From Paraspadella gotoi (taxonomy: Eukaryota; Animalia; Chaetognatha), in the NCBI GenBank assembly GCA_051294375.1, contig CM119263.1, positions 24,285,657-24,349,656 on the forward strand: DNA of 64,000 bases, in the 5' to 3' direction. Under the pieces are notes generated by a model, which ran no database searches, had not been told where the DNA came from, and worked only from the letters and a program-made list of their open reading frames with translations. Made by a program: the position numbers and the translations under genes. Positions 44 to 63,942 of the stretch are shown here, piece after piece (positions within the stretch are counted from its first letter, which is position 1; every line of letters begins with the position of its first letter).

Positions 44-1861
44 TTACCTCAATATCGAATTAAGAGTAAAATAAGAGATCATGGATGAAAAGAATATTCG
101 CCAAGTAAGTCCTTGATTCCAAAAAGAAGCCCCTTCCTCCAAAGAGAAAAGAACACCGCCTACGGGCGCCCCAAAGGCAGCAGAGACGCCTGCCGCGGCT
201 CCGCCGGACACAAAATCTCTTTTTTCATGGTCGTTTCTAAAACACATTTTAAAACGAATTATTTTTAATTTTCGTACAATTAAAAATAAAATTAATTAAA
301 ACCTGAAATATTCAAAAATCTTGAAATCCTTATTGAGTAATCTTGAACGCCCTTGGGATATGCCAGCAGCTATAACCGCACCTAAATTACGTCCGATATT
401 TAACGTTATTGTCATTGTCTTATGTCTTTGAATATAATTATGTAATCAATTAATATCTTATTAACTTAAATATTAGTATTACCTGAATGAATCATGGGTC
501 CTTCTTTTCCAACAGCTAATCCTCCAGCTACTGAAAAAACTACACCTATAGCTTTGCAAATTAATGTTTTGATTCTAACAACCTGAAAGGAGTTAAAAAT
601 ATTTTTTGAAAATTAAAGTAAATTAAGTTTAATTTTAGTCGGGCGAGAATACCTTTGGAATCTTTACTCCGTTTAAATAGCATTTTATTTGAGGTATGCC
701 GCTTCCCGCGGCGACAGGTGATACATAGGCGACGAGGACAGCGGCTACTATAACAAGAACACAATTGATGCCAACCCAAGCGAAAAGAGGAACGGGAAAC
801 GGATCGGTCTCGGTAAACCTAGGGTAAAATCGTTTTCCAAAAAATAAGGCATTCTATTTCTAATTATCACGTTGTTACGCTACCTCTTGTAAGTGCTTTG
901 GATAACTTTATGCTTGAAAGTTGAAATTAGATCTATCATGATGTCGACAAAGACTGCGACCAAAGCAGTGAATATGCCGATGAAGAGCATGACAACCCAT
1001 CGAAGGACGGATCGTTTTCGAACAAAAGCTTGTCCTGGAGGGAAGCAAGAGTAAATCAGAAAATAAAATTTGACGAGTTTTCAATTCCATTGCCTTTTGT
1101 ACCTTTGTCGACTTCATCGGCGATATAAATCTTGTTGTGAAAATCTTCGTAATCGAGACTTTCAAATTCATTTGAGAGGGCGTGATCGAGTGCATCGTGT
1201 CCATCGCGGTTTCCTTTATATCGCTCCCATAAATTACGAATCCAACAATACTGATTAATGGGTTCAACCTACAAACAAAAAGACTCTTTAAAACGTAAAT
1301 AAAATTGGTAAACCAGAATTGACTATATTGGGGTACTTATCCCCAAAATACAATTTACGACTATTATGGCAACAGCCGGGTTGCCTGTGATGCCCATTGG
1401 GATGGGGCATCTCACTGTTGGTTTTGGAGGCTTCCGACCCTCAGTGACGCATCCAGTCACTGGCGCGGTTACCCTAGGACGGTCTCGCTTTGCCAACGCA
1501 GAGGGAAGTCGTTAGGACTGTGGATGGAACACAACGCCTGGGATGGTGTGTTCCCCCTCTGAGTCAATGGTATTGGCTGAACGATCGTGGTGAGAATATA
1601 CCACCACACTATTTTAGAAATGAAACAAAAACCTTCCTCCAACCAAAAATTATTTTGATCAGATCAATTTGTCTCAAGCCATCTAAGATTGCTTCATTAC
1701 CATAAATAATCAACAGGGCAGAAACTCACCCTCACGTCATCTTGGTTTTGAAGCAGAGAATCCTGAGTGTCCGATCTTATGGCACCGTAATTAGCGCGAT
1801 GATGGGGCATATTTGGGCTATCATTCACGCTGGATCGACGCAATATAGAACGACCCTCCAT
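44..1861 (-). CDS. CLCN7: H+/Cl- exchange transporter CLC-7-like, 5' part; multi-exon, runs into an N gap and the window edge
   Basis: Exon peptides [48 protein letters not shown] and GKEGPMIHS are CLC signatures of the CLC-6/7 branch. ATG at 1861 ([11 protein letters not shown]...) with a GTGAGT donor near 1729. Confidence 0.85.
1365..1608 (-). mobile_element. Solo LTR of the twister-bearing non-autonomous LTR element, in a CLCN7 intron
   Basis: Closely similar to the LTRs at 63016-63271 and 63509-63762. Flanked by 4-bp TSD CTAT (1361-1364 and 1609-1612). Confidence 0.85.
1417..1497 (-). ncRNA. Type-P5 twister ribozyme candidate (in solo LTR)
   Basis: Minus strand: GTTGGC AAA GCGA GA CCG TCCTAGGG TAA CCGC GC CAGTGAC-TGGATGC-GTCACTG AGGG T CGG AA GC CTCC AAAA CCAAC. 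It has UAA, GA, T1 (CGG/CCG), T2 (GC/GC), P3 and P4. Confidence 0.75.
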
Positions 1862-2141
1862 AGTCAAAATTATTCTTGGAGCGTATTACGAAAAAGACAC
1901 ACGAGTTTGATTCCACATAGTAACTTGCGGTTTGTTATTTGGCGGGAGCGGCATATCAAGAGATTTATATTTTTTCAAGCGACATTAGTTAGTACGAATG
2001 TCTGTGGTTTTCAAAAAAAAAAATAAACATCGTTAAGGTACAATAAAAAGAAAAAAGTGGAGTCTTGACTTAAGCCCGTCAGGCGAGCTAAAAATATAAC
2101 AAGAGATCATTTGGTGGGATTCCGTTTTCAATGAGTTTTAG

Positions 2142-3448
2142 TCACTTTAAAGGTTTGACTTTATGCAAGAAAGTTTCGGCGGCTTGATGAACAAATTCGT
2201 CCCGCTTCATGGTGAGATGATTGTCACCTTTGACAAAATAAAATATCAGAGATCCCGTCTAAAAAAATTACAAAACTGAAAATTAAACCAACTTCGACCG
2301 GAGGAACTCACCGTGATGGTTATCTCCGCTCTCGATTAAGGCCTGACTGAAGGTTGCAGTCAATTGATCTGGACACAAGGAGTAACCGGCCTCAATCACG
2401 GAAGTAGCGTCGTCTCCTGTGACAATGAATTGACAACAGCATGAAGTATAGACACGGAACATAAGCTGTATGAAAATCCGCACCCGTGGTTGTGACGGCG
2501 AGTAGCAATTGCTGAAGCGCTGCGTCACACAGGGTTTTGTTTGCTCTGCCGAGGTGATTGGCTGCGGGGAACTGCGGGGAATCGGAATAAATAAAATTAA
2601 TAAGGACTGCGGTGGATATAAAATCTGTCGTAAGGATTACGTGACTGGGGAAGGCGGATGATGTGTCCAAGGCGTTGTATAATGCTTGGGTTTGTTTGAT
2701 GTAATCGTGAAAGACGAAGGAAGTTACCACCCCAGCGCGGAATACGTCATAGACGACCACTTCATAATCCCTAATTGCCGATAAAAAAATGTATTTAAGA
2801 TATTTTTTTTAAACAAAATTTCAGCTAGTGATTAAAACCACTTAGAACATAACATCCGTTTACATAGGTCTCTTTTTTCTGTTGACAATGGACAATAGGA
2901 CAATGTCCAATGGACATGCGTTGCCATGATAAACTCCAACACCAGTCAACACCTGCAAGCAATTTTTTTTAAAAGTTTGTCAGCTACATCGGTAGGAACG
3001 TCTTGCAAAACAAGATCGAGCAGTTCTCCGAAGACAACGCCGTTGATGCCGCGGAGATGTCGGTGCACCTTGCACTGGCTCAATATTTCGTAGCTGGACT
3101 GAATATTGTTTTGAAAGGCGGGTTGAGTGTAGTGGGTAAGAAGCAGCGTCTGATACGCTCTAGTCACTTTGTTTCCTTTATCACCGACGGCCTCGAAGTA
3201 ATCGGCCAGAAAGCCAATGGGGTCTTCCGGTCTGTTCTCAATCACCTAAAGATAAAAGCAGTTCAATTTTATTCAGATCTGCCATAAAAGAATTTGCCAC
3301 CTTCATTCAGCTCTGTCATAAAAGAATTTGCCACCTTAGCCAAAACGTCTCGAATCTGGGAGGCAACGTTGGTCCTTTCGAGAAATTGGCGCTCCGTTTC
3401 CGGTCTTTGGTCGCAGGCCGAGCCGCCGCTTTTTCTTTTATCGCTCAT
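2142..3448 (-). CDS. TPGS1: Tubulin polyglutamylase complex subunit 1-like (multi-exon)
   Basis: Peptides FLERTNVASQIRDVLAK / IENRPEDPIGFLADYFE / YDVFRAGVVTSFVFHDY / AFPSHVILTT...LGRANKTLCDAALQQL. TGA at 2142-2144. Confidence 0.75.
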
Positions 3449-5132: not shown

Positions 5133-8100
5133 TTACTTTTCGGAACCATGGAATGGTTTCTCACGATACGAATCGAAATGAGGCCAGGTCTCCAACTCGA
5201 AAGATCTTCCGTCTCCACCGCGATCGACGTCCGATCTTCCGCTAAAGAATCGCGAACGGCGAGGAGACGATTTAGATCCGGGATCGTCGCGGGAAGGTTG
5301 GTCTTCGACATCGTCTCTGTGCCTGGCATTGTCGTCCCTCGAATGGTCGTTGACGACGTCGCCATAGTCCAAATGAAGATCGTCGGATTTGCGCCATCTG
5401 GAACTTCTCTGAACGGGTCGGGCGGAATGCCAATTCCGCGAGTGAGAATGCCGATGACGAACGTGAGTCGTCAGGCGCGCGCGGCGGTGCATCCACGGAT
5501 TGATCAAGGGGCCATTTGCGTTAAGGCTAGGTGTCATTGATCTGCATGTTCGAGGGAAAAATCAATAAGATTGCGATATTCCCTATTTCACAAATCAGGA
5601 GTCAATAAATGTTAACTAGACTAACCGGGCGTTGACGAGATAACCCCGGGCACGGCCCCTTGAGAGACCCCCAGAAAGCGATCTAGGTCGAGAAGACGGT
5701 CGTGAAAATTCTTCCCCAAATAACGTGCGCCTGATGGGACCGCTCTGCGAGGGCGGTTTCCGGGGTTTGGAGAAGAGAGGTGTCGAGGTTCGCGACTGGC
5801 CCGAAGAATCAGTGGCGCCGGAAGCGACCGAAGAGCCCACGCTTGAACCTTGACGCGAAATGAGATTTTTGATCGGCGCCGAAGTGGTCTTTGGTGAAGA
5901 AGGGGGCGTGGGATAAACGGGACGGCTGATGGTCATTGCCGAACCGGGGAGGGATCCAGTGCTCTTGTTGGCGAGCATTCGAACGAGCAGCTGCTTCGTA
6001 AAGGGAACCGTCTTAACGGACGATCGGACCGTACTCTTTGAACGTGACCTGCTAAAAGGGGAAATTGCTGAATAAACCGTCGATTCGGAAAAAAAATCTT
6101 AAAAGTATAGTGATCTCGCCAGACGTTACCATCAAAGAAAATAAATTAAAAAAAAAAAGAATGATTGATGCGATAACGAATTATTGATATAATAGTAATT
6201 GATTGATTTAATAATAATTGATTAATGTAATAGTAATTGATTGATGTGATAACCAATTATTGATACGATAATAAACAATTATTGATGTGATGATAACCAA
6301 ATATTGATGCGATGATAACCAAATATTGATGCGATGATAACTAATAATTGATGCGATGATAACCAATGATCGATGCGATGATAACCAAATAATTGATTCG
6401 ATGAGTCATTCATTGACGCGATGAATCATTCATCGTAAATAAATCATGCTTATTTGAATGAGAGAGAAAGAGAAAAAAAAAGATAGAGAGAAGCTAGATA
6501 GCTACTGCAAAGCTGAAGTCGTTTTTAAACAAATCAGAAGAAGCAGCGATGGAAAAAAAAGAGCGATATATAATTATAAGAGAGAAAATTTGCGATGGTA
6601 AAGAAGCGTGACGACGACAACGGTCACAAAGAAGCAGAGGCGAACCAAAATCACAATCAAACAACAAACGCCCATTGTTCCAAACCTTGATTTCCTCGGC
6701 GTCGCCTTAACAGGTTCGATAGGCGGCGGTTGGTTGTGGAGATCTTTCTTGGTGGGCGCGGCCACACTTTCCCCCACGCCCGGAGGACCCTGTAGAAGGC
6801 TTATAATAAATACCAAAAAAAAAGTATAAGGATCATCGAAATCGTCTAAGAAATTTTTGGACCCATGACAAACTTTGATACTCAAACCATATTTGATACA
6901 GGAAAACTAAGTTTTATACATAACAAACTAGGCTTAATATATAAAAAATAAGTAAATAAATAAATCAAAATTAAATTAATAAATAAAATTAAATAAAAGA
7001 AATGAATTGTATGAATGAATTAAATTCAAATTTAATTTTAAAAAAATGAAAGAATTGAGATAAATAAATTGAGAGATAAAAAAAGATAAGTAAAAGATAG
7101 TAAAATGATAACATGCGAGTCTGCGATGCTTAAAATCATAAGTTTAAAGCTGATATTTTTAAAATTAAATAAAAAGAAAGAGAAAAAGAAAGAAAGAAAT
7201 AGAAAAAAAAAGAGGAAGAAAGAAAGAAATAGAAAAAGAAAGAAAGAAAGAAAGAAACTTTTATTGAAAGAACAGACCTTTTCGCCAGGAATATTAATGA
7301 TTTTGACCGAGCTATTCCGATTCGTAATCTTCTTCGCCAATTTTCGCGACAACTTTGCCCGATTGGCTTTACGTTTTCTCTCCCGCTCCCGTCGTCGAGC
7401 CCATTCTCTTTCCTGAGTCAATAATTTATAGATTAATTGATTCATTTGCATACTTCACCCTTCAATAGCATTTTTTTAATCGTAATTCATGCCAATCTAT
7501 GAACCTTCTGTCTTTGTTCCTCCTTTCGCTTGAGCCTCTCCTTCCGCCTCAACTCTTCGGCTTCACGGGCTTCGGGTTTGAAGGGAAGACCCGATTCATC
7601 GTCATCGGGATCATCGATGTCTGGCGTGATTATAAATTTCTACAAGAAAAATTAAATATTATGAGGTTTTTTTCATCAGGCTTTCCCTACGGTTAACAGA
7701 AAGTAAATAAGAGTACCTGGACCAGAGCACCCTTGCCAAACTGTTCGAGAGGCATTTTGGAGAAGATGTAGTGATTGTTGAGCCACTCCTTAAACCCCAC
7801 GTGCGGGATTCGTAGGCATCGAAGGCCGTCTTGATGGAGCTCGTATCCGAGGCGGCATTCGCATTTAAATCCGCCTTAGTACAAAATTATTTTTTTTGAT
7901 TCTGTTCAGATTTAATAAAAGATCCGCTATATTTTTTCGACGAAAAGAATTACCGATGGTATTGACGCAGTCGTGGTCGCACGCGTTTCTCCTGACGGCG
8001 CATTCGTCATACTGCTTGACGAACGAAGCGGAAAATCCTCCTTTCTGAACTGTCCCGTCGGAGACGAATTTGACCCAAAGTTTGTTTTTGGAGGATTTTA

Positions 8101-11100
8101 TCGTCTCGGGGGATTTATACCTGATTTAGTAAAGACAAAAACTTTAGAAATATAACAGTTTGGTTTGAATCAATTCAATTCATGGTCGAGGTTGTTGTCG
8201 TGGTAATTGTCCCAGATTCAGATGCATAGGCATAGGTAAAACAAACCCGCAGTAACGTCCAATAATTGGAGAATCTTCCGTGTATCCGTCTCGAACTTCA
8301 AGATAGTCGTAAACGCAACCGTCATGTTTTTCGATCTGCAAATTTTTTTCAACTTGAACGAAAAAAAGTCAACATATAAAAAAAGGAAATACAAACCTCA
8401 AAAGATTCAAATGACAAAGCGACGGCGAACCCATCTGGCACAGAAATCCTCCATACGCAGCCTTTATTCGGTCTATACTCATCCGGGAAGTTGGGACTGC
8501 TCAGTTTTCCGCCGTCCTCTCCTATTTAAACCAAGAAAATTACACATCATCCAAATTGTTTGAACTTCAACGGAAAGAGTCTACCTTTAGACAGGATATC
8601 CCCGCCACAAACGGCTTCGTATGTTGCGCGGAAACCGGCACCTCGATTTCCGTACGACGATCTATATTCCACCCAGAGTCTCTCCCCAGAAGATTTGAGA
8701 AGGGGCGGCAACCGGCCGCTGCCGCAAAATCGACCGAGAAGCGGCGCCCTTTGATTGATGAAATTCATTAATATCCGAGTAAGGAAGAATAATCCAGATT
8801 TCGGCTCACCTATACCAATGACCGTCCCTCACTTCAAGGTAATTAGTGTAGCAATTTCGCGTCAATTCTATGTTCATGTTTGTAATATTGAGAATAAGCT
8901 TTTCGCCGTGCGTGGCAGTGATGCGCCATTGACAAAATCTTTCATTTCCGGTATCTGGCTTAGGATAACCGGGGGAAACAACTGCTCCAGAAGGATCCTA
9001 TGATTAAACAATTATCGTTAAAGCTCAACTTAACATAAATTAACAATTTTATCACTTGTCACCTGCATAGTTTTGCCACAAGGCGGACAGCGATACAGCT
9101 TTTTAGCCTGGCGCACGTCACCTTGGCTCAACCACACCCTTTGGCCTATTTCCGGTCTTTTTTGGCCATCTGGAACTCTAAAATATGAGAGATTATTGAA
9201 AAAGAACAATTCATATAATGACGGGATCGCGGTTCCTGACCTTGGTAGAATCGTGTCGAGGTAAGTACCACGAGAAAACGTATTTCTCGCGTAATGCATT
9301 ATGCTACCGTAATCATACGGCTCCCCCAAGGAATACACTTCACTACTTCCCAACACATTAAAATTGTATTCCTGTGAACAAAAAAATATTTTTGAAAAAT
9401 CTTAAAAATATAGTGATCTCGCCAGTCGTTACTATTAAAGAAAATTAATTTAAAAAATCCGGAAAAAAAACGAATGATTGATGCGATAACAAATTATTAA
9501 TGTAATAGTAATTGATTGATGTAAATAATAATTATTAATGTAATAACTATTAATTATATAATTAATATATAATTAATATAATTAAAAGAGAGAACATATA
9601 ATTAAAACGTAATTCGTAATAGTTTTTATAGAAAATTATTTTGTAAATTAAACAAACAAATGCGTGTAGCAATATGAAACATGGTTCTAAAGGATCTTGA
9701 TGATGAGAAGCCATATCTAATTTTTTAACTTCCTATGATATCACACTTTTATAAAAATTAATTTAGGAACAACAGTTTTTGTTTGGGACGAACAACGATT
9801 TTATTTAACAGGCTAGTCAAACATGTTTCAGCTCTCAGATTAAAGCCTTCATCATCAGTGTTTGAAAATCAAACAAATTTTTACCTATCCCTCACTACTT
9901 ATTCTCCTTTTCACATTTCATTTTTAATTAACCAGTTGTAAGTTATTATCATTATCAATTTAATGTTAAGTTTACCTAAATTATTTATTCACCATATATC
10001 TTTGTTGTACATTAACAAATATAATTATTTTCTCTATCTCTCTCCCCTTCAACTTTTCACCTTCAAATTTAATCTATTTTCTTTTTCCCTGTCATTACCT
10101 TCACCTGTCCTTATATCTGACCAGTGACCACTGTCCTTTTGATTCTTTGTTGGAAGCTCTCTTTCCCCCCAAGATAAATGTCAAAGAGAAAATTTGTTTG
10201 AATTTCAAACACTGATGAAGGCTTTAATTTGAGAGCCTAAACATGTCTGACTAAACCTGTTAAATAAAAAAATATATAATTGTTTTGTAAATAAAACAAA
10301 CAAATGCATGTAGTAATATAAAACATGAGAATCTAAAAAATCTTGCTGATTAAAAGCGATATCTAAATTTTTAGCTTTTTATGGTTACACACTTTTACAA
10401 GTTCCAATTATAAAAAAGCGTGACGACGACGACAACGATGGTCACAAAGAAGCATCACTTAAACTAAATCAATATGGTGGACTAAAATCCACCAACCGTT
10501 CATCAGCGGCCATTGGTGCCGGAAGCAAGTCATTCGCCTCCCAACCCAAAGGTCCGGGGTTCTAGCCCGGTGGTCGTCTGGCAGTTAAGAGGGACGGGGC
10601 GCTTAACCCGCCTGTAACACGGTGTTACAGCCTGATCCGAAGCTCAGGGACTGCTTATATTGAACGGTTCTGTCACTAACTCATAACAATAATTACTGTC
10701 TCTTCATCAAGAATTAAAAATTGACGAACCTGGTTTGGAATAATGTTTTTCCGAATAATAATGACGTGTCGATCTCTGCAAAAAAAAATCGACTATTGTT
10801 ATCAAGATAATCCTCTCCGCTCCCGAACCAACCTGTCTGGACGAGTGTGTTCGTGCCAAAACCCGATGACGTGACCAAGTTCGTGGACGACTATTCCGAA
10901 CTTGTCGCAATTGTTGCCGATGGAGATGGCTTGGGGTCCATTGCCCCTCTTTCCCACAAAAGAGCAGCAACCGCAAGGACGGACGGTAAAGATGATGTAG
11001 TCCTTCTCAGTCGTACGTTCCACGAAGGAAATGCAAGTGTAGTTTTCCCAATGTCTCATGGCCTGAAACAAAAATTATTAAAATTTTAAACTTTAAACTA

Positions 11101-12125: not shown

Positions 12126-15100
12126 TTAAACGGAATGAGCACGGAAGAGTTTTCGAAATTTTTGAGCCGGGTAAGTAAAGCCCTGAACAGTTATTTTAAG
12201 ATCAACAAACAATTTTTCTAATTTTACGGAATTCAAAACATCCATTTCCAACCTATGAGAAAAATTAGGTACATATATACTCTTTATAGTTTTTTAAATC
12301 ATATATAAATTTGTGGAAAAGATAATAATTACTTTCTTTCTGGAGACATAGAGAATTCGTCAGGTCCTTGTGTACCCGAACAACCGCCACAATGGAGGTG
12401 ACTTGAATATCCTATTAGATCAAGATTTAGCAGAGAAAAAGTAATTAACAGCCATATCTTCTAACCTGGATGAACCATCCATTCACATGATAAGACTTCG
12501 TTTTGACCAAATGTTCTTTCAACGTTTTTAATTGCCTTTTTAATGTGAGGCAAAGTCATATCATACCTAAAGTAACAAATGACAACAAAATTTTTATCGG
12601 CTTTCAAAACAAATAAAAGTTTAAAAAACAATTTTGGATCCATCCACAACATTTTTAAAATTATCATATTTTTAAAAAATATCTTTTTATAATTTAATTC
12701 TCTGAAAAGGTAAACAATTTACCGACTCAACTAGGAGTTGACCGACAGACGGACAAAGTAAATTATAGAATATAGAGTCAGGCCTAAAAATTTTTACCCT
12801 GTCAAAGATAACCCAATAAAGGCGCGTGTAAAATAAATTTTCTGTTGAGTAAAGATGATTTTTGCATATTTGGAATCTTGACAAACCGCAAGATAAAAAA
12901 CAAGTCTTTCTCGGGGTTCTATCCAATCCGCAAATCGGATATCAAATTCGTAGGGTAAACGGGTTTCGACGATAAGGTTCTTTTTCAAACAGGACGCAAA
13001 AACCTTCGGATTTAAAAATATTCTTATATGTCATCACAACCAAATCAATGAAAAGAATTTAATCACCCGTGCAATAGGTGGAATCACATGAACGTGCTGG
13101 TGACCATCCACAAAAGGAGGACTAATAACATAAATTTATTCCAACATCAAATAAGTCATGCAAAGACCGTAAGAGAAGAAGATTTACCTGTGACCAAAAA
13201 AATGCCGGTAAATAGCTATTTGCGCCTCAAGTTCAACTTCCACCTCCTTGAAGTCGATGCAATTTCGTTTTAGAGCCTCGCGAAAGCCATGTTTCCCCAA
13301 AAAAACTCCGGTTTTTGCATTAAGAAGAGATTGCACAATGTGAGTTGCTAAAACAAAATTAGATATTAGGTATACTTCTTCAGGGTGTATATATAAAAAT
13401 ATTAAAATTATAGAGATCACACCAAACGTTACTCTCAAAGAAAATTAATAAAAAAATCCCCCCCCAAAAAACGAATGATTGATGCAATAACCAATTATTG
13501 TTGCGATAACGAATTATTAATGCATGACAAATTATTGATATGATGATACCAAATTATTGATGTGATGATGACAAATTATTGATATGATGATACCAAATTA
13601 TTGATGTGATGACGGAATGATAAGGAAAATGTTTTAAAAAACAAGTTTGAGCAAACAATGTCGGATCTGCCCACGATCATTATCGGTAATTAATTAATTA
13701 ATAAATAAATAATTATTTAATTAATTAATAATCAATTTATTCAAGTTAATTATTTAATTAATTATGCTAATTAATTTGATCCAAAATGTTTTTTTGATTA
13801 ATTAACTGATTAATTAATTGATTAATTAATTGACTAATTGATTAATTAACTAATTAATTATTTGATTAATTAATACATCTTGTATTTACATTTAAAATAA
13901 AAATAAAAAGAAGCATAATCAATTAATGAAACAGGTTCTTTTTTTTTCCATTTAAACTCATTTCCACTCAAACGATTCCATCGAAACTTGATTTCCAGTT
14001 TAATCACACACTTTTCTACCCAAATACAAAATTTCAAGTCAATCGCCCCATCCACTCATGAATAATTAGTGTTCAAATAGTGAAATATATTTTTTTTTCC
14101 ATTTAAACTTATTTCCACTCGGACGATTCCATCGAAACTTCATATCCAGCTCAATCACACACTTCCCTACCCACACACAAAATTTCATTCCAATCCATCC
14201 ATCCAATCACGAGTAATTGGTGTTTTTTGCTAAGGTGGGATGGACGGACGGATGGACAGATGGACATCGTTTTTTTTTACATAATTTATCATAATTCGAT
14301 GTTCTGATATGATTGAGGGGGCGGACCGACAAAGTGAATTATAGAGTCGGGATCTGCTGAAAGCAGATCCGACTAAAAATACAATAAATCAATAAAACGA
14401 AATGAAATGAATGAAATAAAATAAATGAAATGAATCGCATAAAATGAATCAAATGAAACGAATCAAATGAAATGAATCAAATGAAATGGTTGTTTGAAAA
14501 CAAAACAATACAAAGAGTTTAAAAAAATTTCTGAGCGGGCAATGGAATTTCTAAAAAATTCGTTTGGCGATTTTATTTTCTTTCTTATATAATAATACTA
14601 AGGATCTCCACTTTATTTTAAAACTAACTGGTACAAAATTAAATCTTAAAATGAAATACTACTCCACAAAATTATTTGCAATTTACAAAATAATTTAGAT
14701 AATTTAGATTTGGACAACAATTGGGTTAACAGAAAACAAGCTTGAGCAAACAATGTCGGTTCTGCCCACGATTAGTAGCGGTAATTAATTAATTAATACA
14801 AACTATATAAACTAAAATAATAATTTAATTAATAAATTATTTTATCCGTAATGTTTGTTTTTAGGTATTTTCGTCACTGACCACGACAAAAGCAACGACG
14901 ACGACGATGGCGACGACAATATTGCCAATAAAGATTGACTTGATTGATTGTTTAATTGATTAAATAATTAATTAATTTATAAATAAATTGATTGAATAAT
15001 TAAAAAAAGTAAACCTCGCGCAGAAACTTGTGGCAGCTTACCACTTATCGGTCGGCCTTCGGTCAAATTAAAGTGTAAACCAACAGGGATTTGATTCTCT

Positions 15101-22295: not shown

Positions 22296-25200
22296 TTATT
22301 TATAAATCGTCTCCGGATTTCCAGATTTTAATGCAGAATATCTTGCCGCCGTAAAAAGGTAATCGCTGAGTCTATTAAGAAAAATAAGCGGATCTTTTTC
22401 CATTTCACCGTTGGAAACCAACGAAACGACACGACGCTCGGCTCGCCTATTAATTTAAGAAAATAACTGACATATTTAGCCAAATAAATTATTAAATTAA
22501 AAAACTTACCTACAAATAGTTCGGGCAACGTGTAACGAAGCTGCAATTTTACCACCAGAAGGAAGAATAAAATTTGTCAGCGGCGGTAATTCCAAAGTCA
22601 TCGCGTCGATCCACTCCTCTAATCTTATAACTGTTGTTTTTTCAAAATCGCCAACATGCTAAAGACAACAACTTTATTAAGTTCGTTTTCAATGAAAGTC
22701 GTACGGTACTGCTAATTTAAATATTAAAACGTAACGGAAAATTTGTTGTCATAAAGCATACAGGCGACCCAAAATTTATTACTTTTTCTTATTCAGAGTT
22801 CTGGAATTCAAAATTGTTTGTTCAATACTTGTCCTGTACTAAATCGATTTGTACTACGACTTTTTTATTTAGTAGCATATCCAAACATTGAAGGATCTAA
22901 ATGTTTATTGATACATAGGCAATGAAAAAAAATTTATAAATATAGTTATTGCAAACAATTGCTTACTTTTTTGTGGGCATCTTTGCGAGATGACTTAGGT
23001 GTTGCGACATGACTAGCAACGTCCTGGAGCGTGCATTGAATAAACTGCAGTTGATGGGAAAGATCGATTGCGTCGTTTGACGTGAAAATAGAGTTTTCGA
23101 GGCAATGTTCTCTCCCTGTCAAGCAAGAGAATAAAAGAGAAAAAAAGATCAGGGGACAAAGTCAAGCAACTACGTCCACATGCCTAATTTTACGAGTTCA
23201 ATCCTAATTAGCCTGGCAAGCTTCATATGGGACGGGTTGGAATATCTTTACAAAACCTTGGGAATATTACCTTGGTACCAAAATAAGAGATTTGAGATAG
23301 AACGATTTTTTGTCTACAAAGCCAAAAGGTTCGTAATAAAAATCGGGTTACTCCAATATGCAAATGAGATTAACGTTTCACAGTAATATTTTAATTTAAT
23401 AAAAACTTATTAATCTTATATAAAAAATTAAATAAATATAATAAAATCGAATTTAAAAGCTAGTATATATAGTTTGATCAGCAGATAGGATAAAAAAAAT
23501 AATATTAAGCACTAAAAAGCACATGAAAATACTGTTGCAATGAAGGTTTTTGTAACTTAATCTTGAAAGATAGTAAGACAGTGAACAATGACAAAAAGCT
23601 ATTGAGACAGAGAGAGATACAGTTCAATCAGTTTTTTTGTTTTTCTCATAACCATTTTGGTACTGATTACTTGAATCATATCAAAATACTTTAATAGCAA
23701 GGATTCGTTAGAAGCTTTCCTTTCCAGCGCTCTCTTCAATTAACTTCATGATTGTTTTTGTGATTCTCTCCGTCTTTGTCATAGTTATTATACATCACTA
23801 GGAAAAGAGTGAGCATTATCATTTTATTTGAGCTAATAATATATGACAGTAAAAAAATTAATATTATTTAAGAATTTTAATTTTGGGGCCACTTGGAGGT
23901 AATTAAAAAAGCGAGGGTAAATCTTTCATTTGTCATGGGTTAGGTTCAGTTTTATCAAATTCTAACTTTTATTACTTTACACTATTATAAAGCCTATATC
24001 TAAAAATAATACTTTTGGGTCAATCTGTGTCTTTCTCTCTTTCTCTCTCTCCCTTTCTCTCTCTTAGTCTCTCTCTATATTTCGTATTTGTTTTCAGAAA
24101 AAACTTTTATTCTTGTTAAATCTTTTACCATGATAATAACTTAAAAAATAATTCAAAATATTTAGCAAAAATATACTTTTTGTACTTGCAAATACAATTA
24201 TGTCAAAATTATATTGTGGGAATAAATAAACGAGTTTGTGAAAGAGTCTTGATTGAATGCTTACAAGGAACCGCTCTGTCATTATCTTGTACACTACGGC
24301 GCAAAGAAAACCACTTTTTCATATCGAAAAAAACCGTATTGGATGGCTGAATTTTACAAAGATATAGATACATAAAATAAAGCTTATTAAATGATAAAGC
24401 GATTGGTACAAGTCCCAATAAAATCGAGCAAAGTGTTCGAAAGTTAGAGGACGACAAAGTCGATTGGTACAAAAATCGTCAAAAAGAGTCAATGACTTTT
24501 CCCTATTAAAAGTGTTTATAATATGAAATTGGTACAACCAATATAAAAATTATCCATTCATTTAATAAATAAGCTATCTTTCTCCTGACTTTGGATAGGC
24601 TTTGTGGTTTAAGGCCTCCATCACAGCATCACTCTTACAAGATAATGACATGTCTCGTTTATTCACTCCCAGAGTACCTGGTTTCCCTATCAATGAAGTG
24701 GTATAATGTTTCAAAGAATGTTTCAATTGTATGAAATGACCACTCCCTTAAGTATTAGATCGGGGAATACTATGAAATTGGTACAACCAATATAAAAATT
24801 ATCCATTCATTTAATAAATAAGCTATCTTGTCCCTGACTTTGGACAGGCTTTGGTGGTTTAAGGCCTCCATCACACTTACAAGATAATAACATAGCAGGT
24901 TTCTGCAAGCTTTCAATCAAGACTCTCTCACAGTCTTATTTATTCACTCCCAGTGAACCTGGCTTTCCTATCAATGAAGTGGTATAATATTTCAAAGAAT
25001 GTTTAAATTGTATGAAAAGGACCACTATATTATACTCTACTCAGCATCAAAATACAAGGAGCTGAATTTTATGAAATTGGTACAACCAATATAAAAATTA
25101 TCCATTCATTTAATAAAAAAGCTATCTTGCCCTCACTTTGGATAGGCTTTGGTGGTTTAAGGCCTCCATCACTCTTACAAGATAATGACATAGCAGGTCC

Positions 25201-26542
25201 CTGTAACCTTTCATTCAAGACTCTCTCACAGTCTCGTTTATTCATTCCAAAGTACCTGGCTTCCCTATTAATAAGAATTTTATTTCATATCAATAATGAT
25301 AATAATAAAATGGTAAAATGTTTCTAAGAATGTTTCAATGGTATTGTAATAATATAATTTTCTTGCACCAATTGATATATTTTTTTAAAATATTTTTTTA
25401 AAATTAAAAAAGAAATAGTTGTTTTACCAATTTGATAATGAAAATGAAAAAAAAATCCAATTTGTAAAATTTTGATAGCCATGTTAATATTATTAGATTA
25501 ACTTTTTTAAATATTTTTTATTATACAGAACTATCAAAACAAATTAAAACATTTTATTAATTGTTTTTTAAAAAAATAGTTATTATTAAAATGTTTATGC
25601 TCTCTTTTGCCTTATATTCAACCTTACGATGACGCATTAATCTCATTTGCATATTCGAGTCACTCGATTTTTATTACTAACCTTTTGAGCTTACTTGACC
25701 TACCGGTTCTGATCATATTTTGAAAGTTTTTTGAAAATCTGAATCTAGATTCAGGCACTATCCTAATTCAATTTTTTTTAAATAAAAACGCAGAGAGAGA
25801 GAGAGAGAGAAAGAGAGAGCGAGAAAGAGAAGCCAAATCGTTTTCAGACGAATCAGCAGAAGCAGCAGGAAAAAACTTTTTCATTATAAAATAAACTGGT
25901 AAGCAGAAGCAGCCTCTGAAGAAAAAAAAAGAGAGGAAAAAAAAAAGAGAGAGAGAGAGAGAGGAAGAGAGAGGGAGAGAGAGAGAGAGAGGAAGAGAGA
26001 GAGAGAGGAAGAGAGGAAGAGAGAGAGAGAGAAAGAAGCCAAATCGTTTTCGGACGAATCAGCAGCGACAGCAGCAGAGGCAGCCAGAAAAAAATAAAGT
26101 AATCAAAAGGCAGCAGCAGAAGCAGCAAGAGAAAAGAGAGAAAAAGAAAAAGCCCCTGCAGAGCCAGCTGCAGACTCGTTTTTTCTCTCGATAAATCAGC
26201 CTGGGAAAAAGAGAGAGAGAGAGAGAGCTACATATAATTAAAAGAGAAAAGAGAGAGAGAAGGAGACATACCTAATCCGATCCAGGAAGAAAGTTCATCA
26301 ACACTTCCCAAAGCTTCAAAAACATTATCGTCCTTTTTTCTTCGTTCCCCAGTGAAGAGACTAGAGTTTCCACCGTCGCCAGTTTTGGTGTAAACTTTCA
26401 TAGATCGAACGTGACTTCGATCGACCGAATAGAATCCAGAATTCAAGTAAATTCCAATAGAAGCTAATGTAGATCGAGGAGACGAGGCAACAGGAAAGCG
26501 TTTAAGAAGTATTCGTGAAAATAAATGCTTAAGAAGAGACAT
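22296..26542 (-). CDS. MMAB: ATP:cob(I)alamin adenosyltransferase (about 3-kb repeat-filled first intron)
   Basis: Exon 1 [42 protein letters not shown]. Later exons [40 protein letters not shown] and [14 protein letters not shown]. Confidence 0.9.
24522..25330. repeat. Three tandem units of about 250-300 bp in the MMAB intron
   Basis: Unit start TATGAAATTGGTACAACCAATATAAAAATTATCC at 24522, 24771 and 25070. An inverted fragment lies at about 24210-24295 and a short copy at about 48109. Confidence 0.8.
25790..26265. repeat. GA/GCA-rich simple and low-complexity repeat
   Basis: (GA)n tracts and a duplicated AGAAGCCAAATCGTTTTC.GACGAATCAGCAG. Confidence 0.8.
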
Positions 26543-32898: not shown

Positions 32899-33506
32899 CC
32901 TCGACCCTAATTTTTTATTCTCGAATTTCGGCTGTCAATGTCATAAGGAAGGATGCGATAGTAATTTACATCGGAAATTTTTTTCGCAGTTTATTCGAAC
33001 TGACACGAACGAAAAAGACCGAGTATCTTGTATGATCGAGACTTGTGAGTTTCCCTAATTTACTTTCATCACATTTTCAAGTTTTTGTTTTAAAAGTAAA
33101 AAAATAAGTGTCGAATAATTTCGAAGAGAAGGATGGACATTAAACAAAGTTCTGGAAAGAAAATCATTCATATTGTGACAAACTCATTTACGTTTAAGGA
33201 CCTAAACGATATATTTAATTTAATTAGCAGATAGTTTTTTTAAGATATTTTTCAAACTGGCAAAACTGAGAATTTACAAGCTGAAAAAAAAAAAGGACTA
33301 GTTTATCACATGTATAAATAAATGAATCAGGCAATTTGACATTGTAATCTGTAACACATTTTTTTTTATTTAGCGAAGAACGTTAAGTAAAACCGTGAAA
33401 AATCTTAACGCCGTATGAGCCTTCGAAAAGAGAAGTCTTTGAAAAATCTTCGCTTTCGAGGATAAAAATCACGAATTTGATTACTTTTACACTAAGTCGA
33501 AATGGT

Positions 33507-41125: not shown

Positions 41126-45441
<4,316 letters not shown>

Positions 45442-46145: not shown

Positions 46146-49100
46146 TCACCACTTTTTTAATTCTTCATTGGCTTTGATCCTAGCTTCCATATCCTGCATA
46201 TTTTCCCGCATCTCCTCCAGGGCGAGATGCAGCTTTCGCCTTCGCTTCGATTGTTGCTCCCCTCCGTCGCGGTCACACTCGACTCCTTTGATGTCGTACA
46301 ACCAGACGCGTCCGAAGTCATCCCCGGCTGCCAAAATCTGATAATCCAAAATGAAAGACAAAAGCTACAAATGGCTACGGGCAGACTATACAAAGGACAT
46401 GGAGCCTTATAAGCAGGTTTCGACACATTAGCTCTTAAAATCTTCTCACCTGCTCTCTACCCCCTCCAAAGGTCGACCACGCGAGTCGGTTGAGGGCCAC
46501 AGCTGGGTCGGGCCTCACAGACGCGAACGGAAGCTGTAGGTCTGAACTAACGTCCCAGAGCGAGAGGACTCCGCCAGCGTCGACGGCGGCGAACATGGAG
46601 GCCACTCCGGGGGACCAGGCCACGTCGAGAACGTAGTCGGAGAAGTCTTCGAACGAATTGAGACACGTCAACTCGGGCGACGACGACGAGGGGGCATGCG
46701 ATGATCTCCAAAGTTTGACAGTTCTGTTGGATGAGTGGCTAATTTCATAATTATCTAACCCATTACTAATCATTACCGATCATGACTAAACAAAACAGAT
46801 TACCTGTCAAAAGACGAGGTGAGTATCAAATTGCCGTAATCGCGGGAGGGATGGCAAGAAATGCCCGTAACGGGTCCGTAATGACTGAAAAAGTTTTCGG
46901 GCGACGCTCCTTTACCCAGCGATCCAGATCCGTGCCGGTCGACAACGAATACCGTACCTTCTTCGGATCCAACAAAGAAAGATCTAGCCGAAAATAAAAA
47001 AAATAACTATAAAATATTATTGAATACCATGATGAACCACCAAAAGCGCGAATAACAATTAAGAAGAGGTGGTACCTGTGATTAAAGGTATCTTCTTTTT
47101 CATTGGTGAGTTGATGTTTGAAGAAAGACATACAGGTAGCAGCTAAAGGACGGTGAGGGGAATGGACCTGAAGAAGAAAATGATTTCTAATCAATAAAAA
47201 AAAAGGCGATTCTTAAAGGATTATGTTAAAACCTGCGTCAGCTCCATAGTCTCGACCGGTTGAGTCAACATATCCATCGCCCAACTACACATTTTCCCGT
47301 CAGTCGATATGGAAATTAACGAATGTGCGTGAGTAGATCCCATTACTCCCAAGCAATAAACCTGAAACAGAAATGATATTTATAAATAAGTGTTTTGAAA
47401 GAAGTAGCGGGTGGATTTGTCTTACCGGGTGAGTGTGTCCTCCGCTGGCTGAAAGCGGCGTGCGTTGCACTGGGGTTCTCCTGGGAACTCTGTTGTCCCA
47501 CAATACGATTTGACCGCTGTAAGTGCCGCCGATGACAAGGTTTTGATGAAAGGGAGAGAAGGAAGCCGACATAACTCCAGACTGACAGTGAAATATGAAT
47601 TCAGGTTCTGCGGAAAAAAGAAGACGCCCAAATCACAAAGTACTTAAAAATAATATAATGGCACTGTGGACGCAACTCTGAAACTTGTGGCGTCCACAGC
47701 ACATTATTACCAGCCGACGACTTCTCGCTGTTGGCAGACATGAATCTTGCGTTCCAAACTAGGGCGACGCCGTCGGGTTCTAGCGGCGAATCCTCGTGAC
47801 TTCCATATGTGGCCAGCAACAATTCTGTAGATTTGACGAATCAGATTAAAACGCACACTTAAGGGAACGCAGTGATAGAGGGGGGTCAGGAGGGGTCAAC
47901 ATTTTTTTAAATTAAATGACCTTGCGGACTTTATTTCTGTAATTTCTGTTTTTACAATAATATATTGAATTAATTATTATTGATTTATGATAACATGTTT
48001 ATCACTGGGTTCCCTTAAATCACGACAAGATAAATAAAAAAAAAAATTAAATGATCCATTGTTCATAATTATTATTCTCATTTTTTATCAATATACAATT
48101 TATACATTTATGAAATTGGTACAACCAATATAAAAATTATACATTCATATATTGTTATACTTATTTTTATTGCTTTTACCGTTGTGATGCTGGGACCACT
48201 GAAGCGAAGTAACCACCCGGTGCCGTGACCAACGATCGTGAAAAAATAGGTCAGCATTCTTGAGAATGGCTTCGGCGCCGTCATCGTCGTCCTCGAAGCC
48301 TTTCAACTCTTCGCTAGCGCCAACGTAATCAATGAAGATGTCACTTCTCTCCGTTTTTAAAGCTCGTTCCATGACTTTTGAGGAATTCTGCGATTCAAAT
48401 CGAAAGAATAAAAGCAACAAACATGATAGATTAGAAGATCGCATTGACTCACGTGCAAGAAGCTCACGAAATCATCCGACTTTTCGATGACCCGCTTTTC
48501 ATTTTCCGTCAGTTCTTTAAGCAACGTGCGACCGAACGACGACGATGACATGGACCCACTAGGCGTCTCCGAAGTGCCTGATAGAGGAGGGTATACCCAT
48601 TGAAGACTCTCGAACGCTTCCAAGCAACCTTTGTGTACGTATAAAATCTTCATTTGTATCTAATACTTAAAATAAATGCGTTATTAAAATATTGGGAGAC
48701 ATTAATTTTCATCAGTTTCAAGTTTTAAATACATTTTTGTAATCAACATACATATAAAAAATCTTAAAAGTATAGTGATATCGCCAGATTTTACTATCAA
48801 AGAAAATTAATGAAAAAATCTGAAAAAAATAATGAATGATTGATACAATAATAAATTATTAATGTAATAGTAATTGATTAATAAATGGTAATTGATTCGA
48901 TGATAACCGAATATTGATGCAATGATAACCAAAGAATTTATGCGATGATTGCCAAAATATTGATACAATGATTGCCAAAAGATTGATGTAATGATAGCTA
49001 AAGGAATGAGGCGATGATAATCATTCATTAACGCAATGATAATCATTCATTGATGCAATAATAATCCTTCATTGACACAATTAATCATTCATCATAAATA

Positions 49101-51140
49101 AAATAAATGCGTGTATGTGTGAGAGAAAAAAAAAATTAGAGAGAAGCTGGACAGCCGCTGTTTTTAATGAACTCGTTTTTAAACAAATCAGAAGAAGCTG
49201 CAATGGAAAAAGATATAATTAAAGAGAGAAATAAAGAGAAACTGGACAGCCGCTGTAGCAGATTAATTTGTGGATTAACTTAAATGAGATTGATTTCCTC
49301 AATCTCATTTACATATTATCGTATTCTGATTAAGCTTTGATAAATTTTTATTCTATTGCCCTAAAAGTTTAATATTAATATTTTACATTTGTAAATGATC
49401 ATGTTTGCTTATAGTTCAATTAATAACTAAATAATTAATGATTTAATTATCATAATTGCTAGTTTACAACTTTAATTATTCTTGTACAGTCGCTGCAGAG
49501 CTGAACTCATCTATATATATAAAAATTGTTTTGTAAATAAAACAAACAAATGAATATAAGAATATAAAACATAACAATTTAAAAGACCTCAATAATGAAA
49601 AGGCATATCTAAATTTTCAGCTTTCTATGGTTACACACTTGAACTATTTTCAATGTTAAAACAGCGTGACGACGACAACGACTACGGTCAAAAGCAGAAA
49701 CGAATTAAAATCTCACCCAAGTCGGGCCCGTCTGGCGAGATAAAAATAATATACAGCAAAATATGAAAGAATACAGTCATGTGCAAAAAAACGCGCCAAT
49801 TTATTATCAGCTTGAAAAATTTTTTTCAATATTTAAATTTTTTAATTTTTAAAAAAAATTTTAAAAAAATTAAAATTTATTAAAATATAAAAAGTTTAAT
49901 ATAAATTTTATTAAAATTGGGCTATCCGTTTTTTAAATAAATTTTTTTAAATAAAATACTTATAAATAATATTCAATTTTCCCCTTTCTTAAACCACTCG
50001 ACTAATTTTTATAAAATATATATATTGATTAAATTTAATTTTTAAAAATATTCTTATAAAGCATCAGGAATTAAAATTATTTTTTTGCACATGAGTGTAC
50101 GTAGCTAATTTCAAAAAATCATAGCACGCATTAACATTTTAATGGATAAAAATCGGAGAATTGATTTATAATGAGATTAGACGATTTACCGGCGTTAGCG
50201 GCTTCAACGAGAGAAGGGGATTCTGATCTGTCGCCCTTGGGCCTGACTCTCGAGGGAACCGGCATCTGCGCCTTTGGTCGTGTTTGAGGTCCGGCTCCGT
50301 CATAATCCTCCTCATCCTCTTCTCCCTCATCGTCGTCGGACTCTTTTGGATGAAACTCGTCCTCCCATTCGAAAGTATGGAACACAAATGGACCTGGATA
50401 AAATTTCAACCGTTGACCAATGATAGCTATGAAGCCACTAACAATGTCAGCTTGATAATGATACGTCTCATAGTCATACGTCAATAATATAGTTTTAAGT
50501 AAAACAAATTTGTTTTGTAATTGTAAAAACCTTCGTAAAGATGTAGAGGCTTGGCGTCTTTAGCTAGGCCCTGGGAGCCCGAGGGAGTTTGAGTCTGTTT
50601 AGTGTAACAGACAAAATCCTTTGGAAGAATGGACAGCTGCGAAACTTGCGATAAAGAAAGGTTTTTGGTAGGCGTTCGTGCCGTGAAGTATTGGCTGAAA
50701 ATAAAATACATTGTACACATCGGATCATGATTAAAATTAGATATGACTTACCTATTTGGACTAGACAGACATTTAGTCTGATTAACGTTTTGTTGTAGGC
50801 TAAGTTCCCCTGGAGTAGAAGTTCCCGAAGAACTCCGCGGCGTGTCTATGCCGCTCAACCCTCCAAGGCGTGCTTTAGAGATCTCTTGAAGAACTTCTTC
50901 GATGAATGTTTCATCGCATCGCGAAAGGGACCCTTTTCACGACGAGACGAAAATTAAAAAACGCCTCAGTTTCAAAAGGAGCGAGGACAAAGTGTACGTA
51001 CCGGTTTGGCCCGATTTGGCGGTCGATGAGGCATCGTGGGCGGGGTCCCGCTTGGAATGCAAGTTTCGTAATCTTTTCTCCTCGCGAATCGCCGCCAATC
51101 GCGCGCGTTTTTCTTCCAGTTCTAACTTTCGTTGATTCAT
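46146..51140 (-). CDS. DYNC1I: Cytoplasmic dynein 1 intermediate chain (WD40)
   Basis: [21 protein letters not shown]8-binding [31 protein letters not shown]...TPVQRTPLS and [10 protein letters not shown]. Confidence 0.9.
47863..48014. mobile_element. 152-bp MITE with TTAA TSD (Kolobok-like termini)
   Basis: TTAA-GGGAACGCAGTGATA ... TATCACTGGGTTCCC-TTAA. Confidence 0.65.
48757..49741. mobile_element. HINE/DINE-1-like repeat family A, near-complete copy
   Basis: Same ends as 35225-36232 (GTGATATCGCCAGA ... GCCCGTCTGGCGAGAT-AAAAA). Confidence 0.7.
49774..50097. mobile_element. Tc1/mariner-like MITE
   Basis: TA-CAGTCATGTGCAAAAAAA ... TTTTTTTGCACATGAGTG-TA. Confidence 0.7.
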
Positions 51141-53973: not shown

Positions 53974-59473
<5,500 letters not shown>

Positions 59474-62110: not shown

Positions 62111-62540
62111 GCCGCGCCCCTAGTCGGTCGGTCCGTCATGCGCATCCCGTTGCAACAGGAAGATGATGGAATCCTGAAGAGACGATGTTCACTTGTCTCC
62201 ATTCTCATTGCCGGGATTTTGTTCAGTTGGTCGAACCGCGTGTTATTCTTGTGAATTTAGGCTATATTTGATTATCAACAGGTACTTACAACATCGCCGT
62301 CGTCAGTCTTCTTGTTTTCCGAATTTTATTAGCTCATCGTCGATTGATATATTGTTCGGTTTGGCGCCAACACAGAAACTGGTAGATTTCCTTTCGTTTG
62401 GCAATGCATTGGCAATCCTCCTGCATGACTTCTAAGCCCGCATCAAATCTATTAATTCTTTGAGCAGTTAAATTATCTCGGATTGGATTTTATTTTATTT
62501 TTTATATTTTTTTTAGTTTTTCTTTTGATATACATTCGCA

Positions 62541-63942
62541 ATGACTTCGGTATCAATCAACGCGCTGAGTGCGATGCTCAGTTCGACATCAGTGGCCGGC
62601 AACGAAGTCAGTTTCGAAGGCCAAGGACTCAAACTGAACAGTCCCGAAGATGCCAAAGTCGTTATCGATGCCATCGACAGATGCGAGAACTTAAATATTT
62701 TGAAGTTGGAAGGAAACACTTTGGGAGTGGAAGCCGCTGAGGCGATCGCCAAGGCCTTAGAACGACATCCCGAATTTGAGCGCGCGCTGTGGAAGGATAT
62801 GTTTACGGGAAGATTAAAGACAGAAATACCTCCCGCACTACAGCATCTGGGAGGCGCGATCGTTTCCGCCGGCGCTCATTTGGTCGAGCTCGACCTCAGT
62901 GACAATGCATTTGGTCCCATCGGAATCGACGCGGTGGCAGCATTGCTCGAAAGCGCCAGCGCGTATACTTTGCAGGAATTAAAGTTTAACAACCAAGGTT
63001 TGATGAATAATATATTATGGCAACAGCCGGGTTGCCTGTTGATGCCCATTGGGATGGGGCATTCTCACTGTTGGCTTTGGGGTTTCCGACCCTCAGTGAC
63101 GCCTCCAGTCACTGGCGCGGTTACCCTAGGACGGTCTCGCTTTGCCAACGCAGAGGGAAGTCGTTAGGACTGTGGATGGAACACTACGCCTGGGATGGTG
63201 TGTTCCCCCTCTGAGTCAATGGATTTGGCTGATGGATGGTGGACGTGAGGCGGTGTGAATATACCGCCACAGGATCCCCGGGCCAAGACATCACTCAGGT
63301 TCCTCAAGCCTGAGAGGTGTCTGACAAGACTGTTACCATAGTGGAGAGAGAGAGAGAGAGCGCGAGTTGTGGGGGCATAGGCGTTTGTCGTAGCGTACCC
63401 CAGGGGCATAGGCGTTTGTCGTAGCGTACCCAAAGTCGGCAGGGCATAGGCGTTTGTCGTAGCGTACCCTGAGAAGGTTGCGTGTTCGATAGTAGGGCTC
63501 CCACCACTTATGGCAACAGCCGGGTTGCCTGTGATGCCCATTGGGATGGGGCATCTCACTGTTGGCTTTGGGGGCTTCCGACCCTCAGTGACACCTCCAG
63601 TCACTGGCGCGGTTACCCTAGGACGGTCTCGCTTTGCCAACGCAGAGGGAAGTCGTTAGGACTGTGGATGGAACACTACGCCTGGGATGGTTGTTCCCCC
63701 TCTGAGCCAATGGATTTGGCTGATGGATGGTGGACGTGAGGCGGTGTGAATATACCGCCACAATATACTTATTAAAAGTTGAAAATAAAGCTATTTAAAA
63801 TTGTTTTTCGAAGGTATGGGAATAGGCGGCGGAAAGCGACTCGCCAAATGTCTCATAACGTCACATATTCGAGGCTCGTCCGCCGGGACGCCTTTGAAGT
63901 TGAAAGTCTTTATTGCCGGAAGAAACCGATTAGAAAATCCTG
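62541..63942 (+). CDS. RANGAP1: Ran GTPase-activating protein 1, 5' part; intron 62998-63813; continues beyond the window
   Basis: LEGNTLGVEAA, WKDMFTGRLKTEIP, LDLSDNAFGP, NNQG|MGIGGG and LKVFIAGRNRLEN. Confidence 0.92.
63070..63149 (-). ncRNA. Type-P5 twister ribozyme candidate, 3' LTR (L4 AAGC changed to AAAC)
   Basis: Same fold as the 5' LTR copy, but a G>A change breaks one T2 pair. Confidence 0.6.
63373..63469. repeat. Three exact 28-bp direct repeats in the internal region of the LTR element
   Basis: GGGCATAGGCGTTTGTCGTAGCGTACCC at 63373, 63404 and 63442. Confidence 0.9.
63561..63641 (-). ncRNA. Type-P5 twister ribozyme candidate, 5' LTR (consensus core)
   Basis: GTTGGC AAA GCGA GA CCG TCCTAGGG TAA CCGC GC CAGTGAC-TGGAGGT-GTCACTG AGGG T CGG AA GC CCCC AAA GCCAAC. 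Predicted U^A cleavage between 63615 and 63614. Confidence 0.8.

Follow-up and report, generated by a model that had tools for sequence, protein, structure and literature searches.

A 64,000-nucleotide stretch of the genome of the chaetognath Paraspadella gotoi (GenBank assembly GCA_051294375.1, contig CM119263.1, positions 24,285,657 to 24,349,656; hereinafter the window) contains the full-length copy of a repeat that we designate family A, which is a small non-coding long terminal repeat (LTR) retrotransposon with tRNA-type promoter boxes followed by a twister ribozyme fold in the LTR. The model that we favor, with a little better than an even chance, is that family A is a terminal-repeat retrotransposon in miniature (TRIM) with RNA polymerase III (Pol III) promoter boxes, in which two twisters with palindromic P1 sequences pair and excise a 492-nt monomer that is circularized and copied by Gypsy-type enzymes. 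The parts of the element and its other copies in the window are as follows.

63016..63762, minus strand: full-length non-coding LTR element of family A, 747 bp (5' LTR 63509-63762; internal region 63272-63508; 3' LTR 63016-63271)
63698..63709, minus strand: A-box-like motif in the 5' LTR, with no variant at or above 3% among copies in run X3
63666..63674, minus strand: B-box-like motif within a T-arm-like hairpin, with no variant at or above 3% among copies
63559..63645, minus strand: intact type-P5 twister of the 5' LTR, with P1 linker UCCUAGGG at 63616-63623 and a predicted cut between U63615 and A63614
63497..63506, minus strand: primer-binding-site-like TGG motif, 2 nt past the 5' LTR
63067..63153, minus strand: twister of the 3' LTR, with AAA for AAG and a damaged T2; predicted cut between U63123 and A63122, 492 nt from the first
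1365..1608, minus strand: solo LTR with target duplication ATAG and an intact twister at about 1415-1501 (predicted cut U1471), sense in a CLC chloride-channel intron
42340..42540, plus strand: 3'-truncated LTR whose twister has the decayed linker UCCUAUGG (predicted cut U42464), antisense in a kinase-gene intron

The full-length element has the termini TGTGG...CCATA, is flanked by the target duplication ATAT and lies antisense in a RanGAP1 intron; its two LTRs are 97% identical. In one DNA sequencing run, 9443 contigs match family A, in agreement with the high genomic density that a preliminary description of the window had proposed, and the copies place its edges at 63508/9 and 63762, with 118+98 and 61 contigs departing into dissimilar flanks. 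The runs consist of contigs, in which transcript ends, strand, level and circles are not readable and depth is not copy number. The B-box-like motif departs once from the consensus and is not matched by a B-box regular expression. Most other copies are 2 nt shorter at the primer site, giving a 9/10 match to the 3' end of bee tRNA-Trp (PMC10886601 Fig. S2; here and below, statements on cited papers refer to the consulted parts of those sources). A sense-strand T4 run is absent from families A, B, C and E (see below). The open reading frame of the full-length element has no Pfam match, and ARAGORN makes no tRNA call at default settings, its relaxed settings being too noisy to use (36 and 212 calls). 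No reverse transcriptase (RT), gag or endonuclease domain was found among 22 long and 65 of the 151 listed short frames of the window, and so no autonomous partner was found in it. A search of metagenome sequence for the family A P3-P4-L4 pattern yielded 21 matches, all of them lacking the twister parts that lie upstream.

A 28-nt repeat, hairpin-forming in each of its three copies, lies with a (CT)n tract in the interior of the element (63373-63469). At 63476, about 30 nt past the LTR, some contigs (runs X7 and X10) switch to a different, G+C-rich sequence, a second family A interior that possibly belongs to another subfamily or to an autonomous partner.

Ten type-P5 twister motifs, belonging to five families, were located in the window, nine with a descriptor of the permuted fold (GA, T1, linker, UAA, P2, T2, P4, U-T1-AA-T2) and one by eye. 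Family A contributes four LTR copies (GA at 1484, 63136 and 63628 on the minus strand, that at 63136 being the AAA copy, and at 42451 on the plus strand; T1 CGG/CCG), and families B (GA at 10593; T1 CCG/CGG), C (18005; CCA/UGG) and E (15489; UCC/GGA) one copy each, all on the plus strand. Family D contributes three tandem copies on the minus strand (25170, 24872 and 24622), with T1 CCA/UGG and a T2 altered on both sides to AC/GU; the third copy lacks P2 and escapes the descriptor. The preliminary description had counted six folds, in families A, B and C; all six are present where it placed them and with the T1 pairs it gave, and the total rises to ten with family E and the three family D copies, which it had overlooked.

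The copies outside family A are the following.

10473..10685, plus strand: probable solo LTR of family B, TATGG...TCATA, flanked by TCAA and ACAA; antisense in an astacin/CUB (BMP1-like) intron
Parts of family B, plus strand: 5' hairpin; tRNA-Gly-like part 10506-10578; twister at about 10580-10655 with linker GGCGCU and predicted cut U10604
17870..18111, plus strand: probable solo LTR of family C, starting TGTGGCG, with a B box at 17970; antisense in a TMEM214 intron
About 17990-18063, plus strand: twister of family C, with linker UGUCGGCA and predicted cut U18018
15470..15556, plus strand: twister of family E, the ends of the element being undefined; the copy is decayed (linker AGACUG, AAUC)
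24518..25270, minus strand: three tandem units of family D, with predicted cuts U25159, U24861 and U24611, 298 and 250 nt apart

The loose descriptor gives ten matches, nine of them motifs and one, at 18768, an AT-rich sequence that we dismissed as a chance match. In 960 block-wise dinucleotide shuffles the corresponding mean is 2.08 (maximum 8); requiring a P5 of at least 5 bp leaves nine matches against a mean of 1.34 (maximum 7), and requiring both T2 pairs and P5 leaves six against 0.16 (maximum 3). The preliminary description had named similar density in shuffled sequence as the test of chance, and the density found there is far lower. These figures nevertheless flatter the result, because the descriptor was tuned after the matches were known and the six strict matches represent three families whose repeated copies are not independent; independent support comes from the other copies.

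GA, the UAA cut site and U-NNN-AA are found in all ten motifs, the P2 and P4 stems and the T1 and T2 pseudoknots follow one another in the permuted order, and the ends close in P5. Across families, changes on both sides of the pair are seen in T1, T2, P2, P4 and P5; the earlier argument from covariation and the twister assignment are both supported. The accompanying statement that the stems differ yet still pair needs correction in detail: the first pair of P2 is mismatched throughout family A, P2 is reduced to 3 bp with a bulge in families B, D and E, and the window copy of family C has a shortened P3. The covariation was taken from the descriptor parse of the motifs. The fold is damaged in the window copies of C and E, the 3' LTR copy of A and the third copy of D; majority letters of other copies restore C and E. 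We conclude with high confidence that the ten motifs have a genuine twister fold.

Variation among family A copies points the same way. Outside L3, 3 of 80 twister positions vary at or above 3%, compared with 18 of 103 in the spacers and L3 (Fisher p 0.004; the variation figures for this family rest on 40 of 41 rows of the variant table). One of the three variable positions is a bulge, one adds a pair and one lies in the palindrome center, and no variant reaches 3% in GA, the UAA cut site or U-NNN-AA. The A and B boxes vary at none of 21 positions compared with 15 of 96 (p 0.07). The 50-nt 3' end is likewise invariant, and hence constraint in family A is not confined to the twister. Minor variants at 63591 and 63601, of near-equal depth in two runs, convert a P3 A-U pair to G-C and probably represent one subfamily with a compensatory change.

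The feature that sets these twisters apart is P1. The preliminary description had read it as a mini-hairpin of 6-8 nt; the length stands, the hairpin does not. When forced, the P1 hairpins are unfavorable (+2.7 to +5.7 kcal/mol), and a closed P1 hairpin, as expected of a type-P5 twister, is not found. Instead, the linkers of families A (UCCUAGGG), B (GGCGCU), C (UGUCGGCA) and D (AGGCCU) are self-complementary from end to end, with self-duplex energies of -8.3 to -11.0 kcal/mol, and the innermost linker pair, which a hairpin could not form, is Watson-Crick in five of five families. Among shuffle matches with 6- or 8-nt linkers, only 6 of 183 have a palindromic linker. For family E a palindrome was predicted beforehand; the window copy (AGACUG) is not palindromic, and most other copies have CGGCCG, which accounts for 85-89% of the depth in run X3 and for 53-100% of that in run X7 (AAGC in 97%). 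P1 is therefore better read as a palindrome able to pair between two copies than as a mini-hairpin.

Phage type-P5 twisters provide the comparison. With T1 CCC/GGG, 44 distinct matches were collected, of which 29 pass in P2 and P4. A linker of 15-26 nt is found in 28 of the 29, as a long P1 hairpin in 27. The lone remaining case, with a 6-nt linker, proved to be the junction of two type-P1 twisters, and two short-linker phage matches were rejected as type-P5 because they are tandem type-P1 twisters. Phage contigs L040 and L014 carry type-P1 twisters directly in tandem.

In the mechanism that we propose, transcription by Pol III would begin close to the A box in the 5' LTR, meet no terminator and continue through both LTRs; Pol III transcription of the element is likely. 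Each twister would then contribute its 5' half to a pairing with its partner's 3' half, the two palindromes making one helix. This swapped arrangement is nested and hence possible within one transcript, and pairing between two twister copies probably plays a role. Twister cleavage, which we consider very likely, at U63615 and U63123 would free a 492-nt RNA without a terminal repeat. Because such an RNA results when both LTRs are cut at the same position, a circle would be needed: as argued for plant retrozymes (PMC4918200), an RT primed by a tRNA can copy the LTR twice on a circle, and in animal retrozymes host ligases do the joining (PMC7229834). Circle formation seems fairly probable here; contigs cannot show it, as the circle junction equals LTR sequence. 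The circularized monomer would then be reverse-copied into DNA by a Gypsy-type element. Animal Helenus elements are thought to use Gypsy enzymes (PMC10886601), and mobilization of the same type is quite likely for family A. The weak P1 would keep a single twister slow to cut, both in the finished circle and in solo LTRs in host introns, and in family D the tandem units would pair with one another in the same way.

Families B and C, known as single LTRs only, are probably solo LTRs of the family A kind. The three families can be aligned over their full length, through the 5' hairpin, the tRNA-like part, the twister and the 3' end; the parts upstream of the twister are alike among the three (z 2.1-3.5 against shuffles), and the 3' parts of A and C also resemble each other (z 3.5), that of B not being so. 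Descent of the entire LTR from a common ancestor accounts for this collinearity and likeness. In family B three of four target-duplication positions agree and an A-tail is missing; ARAGORN calls its tRNA-Gly at a relaxed score only, alongside 35 other calls. The 5' edge of family C at 17870 is marked by 59+24 contigs with dissimilar flanks, its start TGTGGCG resembles that of family A, and its target duplication likewise agrees at three of four positions. The window copy of C is decayed, with a shortened P3, one of two T2 pairs (AAGA) and a decayed 3' end; 56 contigs from other copies have AAGC and a family-A-like P3, and a single contig of the locus from another individual (run X3) ends GTTGCCATA as in family A. 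The preliminary description had taken B and C for short interspersed elements (SINEs). This reading is not supported: the tRNA-like part is preceded by 20-35 nt, the ends are of LTR type, the flanking repeats are near 4 bp, and an A-tail is missing, unlike the 5' tRNA head, A-rich or repeat tail and long target duplication of tRNA-derived SINEs.

Family D has linker AGGCCU, T2 AC/GU, no P3, a P5 of at most 9 bp and T-runs; A and B boxes were not found in it. In a cobalamin adenosyltransferase gene the array occupies the sense strand between exons. The family D twister is similar to those of E (z 6.6) and B (z 5.2), the flanks being mostly dissimilar apart from a weak likeness to A upstream (z 2.0), and sharing of a twister module across element types is possible for this family. 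An inverted fragment of a family D unit (24217-24291) lies beside the array, and a 43-nt family D piece is found at 48109-48151; the tandem and inverted pieces may be reminiscent of Penelope-like insertions.

Several observations weigh against the proposed pathway. Cutting, transcript ends and circles are all predictions. Because the families are related, the five palindromes are not five independent events, and in 3.2% of family A depth the palindrome center is broken with no compensating change listed. The sole full-length element has a damaged 3' LTR twister, a poor polypurine tract (GGGGA only, 2 nt before the 3' LTR) and an LTR terminating in TA instead of CA, and the repeat status of family B is presumed. 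Folding of the natural two-LTR transcript favors the swapped form by just 3.5-5.5 kcal/mol over separate forms, the free minimum is 35-41 kcal/mol below every constrained fold, and pairing of the two linkers reaches about 1% in the free ensemble, pseudoknots being outside the model; folding energy is not decisive between monomer and dimer. One intact solo LTR, like the tandem D array, is in sense orientation within host introns, a poor fit with a simple argument from host protection; four of six intronic insertions are antisense, a number too small for a test. At gathering score Rfam has no match in the window. The best sub-threshold matches are Twister-P5 (RF02684) at 24833-24875, a family D copy (25.6 of 37.6 bits, E 0.35), and twister-P1 (RF03160) at 42460-42526, a family A copy (24.2 of 67.2 bits, E 0.92), and local Rfam scans of the family B and C regions found no twister.

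The strongest alternative is monomeric cutting, in which the short linker would be a remnant of P1 and the element would still give rise to a monomer and circle defined by the ribozyme. P1 is dispensable in a mini-twister, which cuts at a near wild-type rate without it (PMC5408937), and hence monomers may cut; elsewhere cleavage without P1 is termed inefficient (PMC8501958). A 6-8-nt linker could also span the helix end, and the swapped fold is favored only modestly. We consider this alternative unlikely, since it leaves unexplained the full self-complementarity of five sequences, innermost pair included, and the outcome of the family E prediction, and the forced hairpins are unfavorable. A different role would be that the twister replaces the Pol III terminator: only the 3' LTR would be cut, leaving a linear RNA with a terminal repeat of about 100 nt that follows the ordinary LTR route without a circle. 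The twister does occupy the position of the T-run that follows the B box in most published Helenus LTRs (PMC10886601 data file), families A, B, C and E lack a T4 run, and Cassandra uses a Pol III promoter to produce a short terminal repeat (PMC10886601). The same motif is present in both LTRs, nothing was seen that would silence the 5' site, and paired twisters have two equivalent active sites, all of which make this role rather improbable.

The preliminary description had suggested that a twister module was exchanged between an LTR element and tRNA-headed SINEs. The tRNA-like parts of B and C, and a family D twister similar in spite of unrelated flanks, would fit such exchange; the LTR-type structure of B and C and their collinearity with A beyond the twister make it very unlikely, as common descent of the whole LTR accounts for all three. 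That the folds are inactive relics or functionless pattern matches would agree with the sub-gathering Rfam scores, the visible damage in five of ten window copies and the tuning of the descriptor on its own matches, and is nonetheless the least credible alternative, highly improbable in view of the two-sided changes in five helices, the canonical core that majority letters restore in C and E, and a core that varies less than the spacers.

Among known elements, family A comes closest to Helenus, or TRIMp3, whose members are LTR retrotransposons of the non-autonomous kind (Kojima 2024, PMC10886601). As in Helenus, it is under about 1 kb and non-coding, with two LTRs, tRNA-derived A and B boxes and a candidate primer-site motif, and it shares the 4-bp target duplication of animal Helenus (ATAT, ATAG), the occurrence of solo LTRs and that of several families per genome. 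It differs in that a twister without a T-run follows the B box, the ends are TG...TA and the polypurine tract is weak. The main text of PMC10886601 does not mention a ribozyme. Five twister L4 words have three occurrences in its data file, none in an LTR record, line breaks possibly hiding words.

Two gall-wasp records of the same file (Helenus-2_SyJa-LTR and Helenus-2_SyUm-LTR, Data S1 of PMC10886601) contain, by eye, a type III hammerhead after the B box and no T4 run, in the same slot as the twister here. It comprises a GUC site, a 7-bp stem I, CUGAUGA, a 4-bp stem II, GAAA and a 6-bp stem III, with loops I and II complementary over 12 nt. These elements use a tRNA-Trp primer site, and the hammerhead is unmentioned in the consulted parts of PMC10886601.

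Plant LTR retrozymes (Cervera et al. 2016, PMC4918200) resemble family A in a ribozyme motif per LTR, a non-coding interior, a putative primer site, a 4-bp duplication, a monomer without terminal repeat and a proposed circle and Gypsy RT. Here, however, the host is an animal, the motif is a twister instead of the type III hammerhead found in each LTR of those elements, the boxes are of Pol III type and dimer dependence is predicted; circles have been demonstrated for the plant retrozymes and are predicted here. Family A is thus predicted, by analogy, to work like a retrozyme while standing outside the retrozyme definition.

For the dimer, the precedent is the hammerhead with a palindromic stem III (PMC6765202, PMC7229834). 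In the dimeric type I hammerheads described there, from Penelope-like elements and from amphibian non-LTR retrozymes, the cut-site helix is likewise a palindrome supplied by a second copy, and the 250-300-nt tandem units of family D resemble non-LTR retrozymes; the ribozyme class is different, and A, B and C are of LTR type. Twisters in RTE elements have been reported (PMC8501958, PMC7761336). The T-variant twisters of the Schistosoma RTE element Perere-3 (PMC8501958) are, like ours, animal retrotransposon twisters with a weak P1; they are type-P1, lie at the 5' end of a non-LTR element and have P1 completed by the flank, whereas ours are type-P5 inside an LTR. Rfam RF02684 (clan CL00120; for structure and permutation, see PMC6154101 and PMC10085705) shares the order P5-P2-GA-T1-P1-UAA-P2-T2-P3-P4-L4-P4-P5, the cut between U and A and both pseudoknots. 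The present motifs differ from it in P1 (a 6-8-nt palindrome against a 15-26-nt hairpin in the phage matches), in a T1 other than CCC/GGG, in the AC/GU T2 of family D and in scores below gathering.

Neither a twister in an LTR nor a natural palindromic-P1 twister was found in the literature searched, in which subscription papers and bioRxiv supplements are thinly covered. The alignments of Roth et al. 2014 could already include eukaryotic type-P5 forms with a short P1. LTR retrozymes have so far come from plants and carry hammerheads, animal retrozymes are non-LTR, and retrotransposon twisters sit at the RTE 5' end. If the model is true, a twister in the LTR of a Pol III-type animal TRIM joins these lines and offers Helenus a circle route, and a twister that needs a partner means that two unrelated ribozyme classes have reached the same palindrome-dimer solution. 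The variant escapes Rfam, and so many such twisters may be overlooked. More broadly, we put forward tentatively, at somewhat short of an even chance, that animals have LTR retrozymes: Pol III-driven Helenus-type TRIMs would more than once have swapped their terminator for a self-cleaving ribozyme (a twister here, a type III hammerhead in gall wasps). The twister would be a natural domain-swapped dimer that registers the presence of two LTRs through its palindromic P1, cuts unit-length RNA for circularization and remains inactive once in the circle.

Genes for a CLC channel, a BMP1-like protease, TMEM214, cobalamin adenosyltransferase, a kinase and RanGAP1, all split by introns, mark the window as animal DNA. 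Among the 120 RanGAP1 relatives listed, identity reaches 81% in two and is at most 69% in those that carry a name. Two neighboring long open frames at 29445-32934 have thioredoxin and sulfhydryl-oxidase (QSOX) domains and are likely a tandem duplication. An AT-rich dispersed repeat, unrelated to the twisters and with internal 19-22-nt tandem units, is present in at least five copies (6092-6410, 9383-9748, 13395-13635, 35224-36148 and 48745-49640). In run X7 a loose contig end fits a spliced joint at 17815; the run may be RNA, and we draw no conclusion from it.

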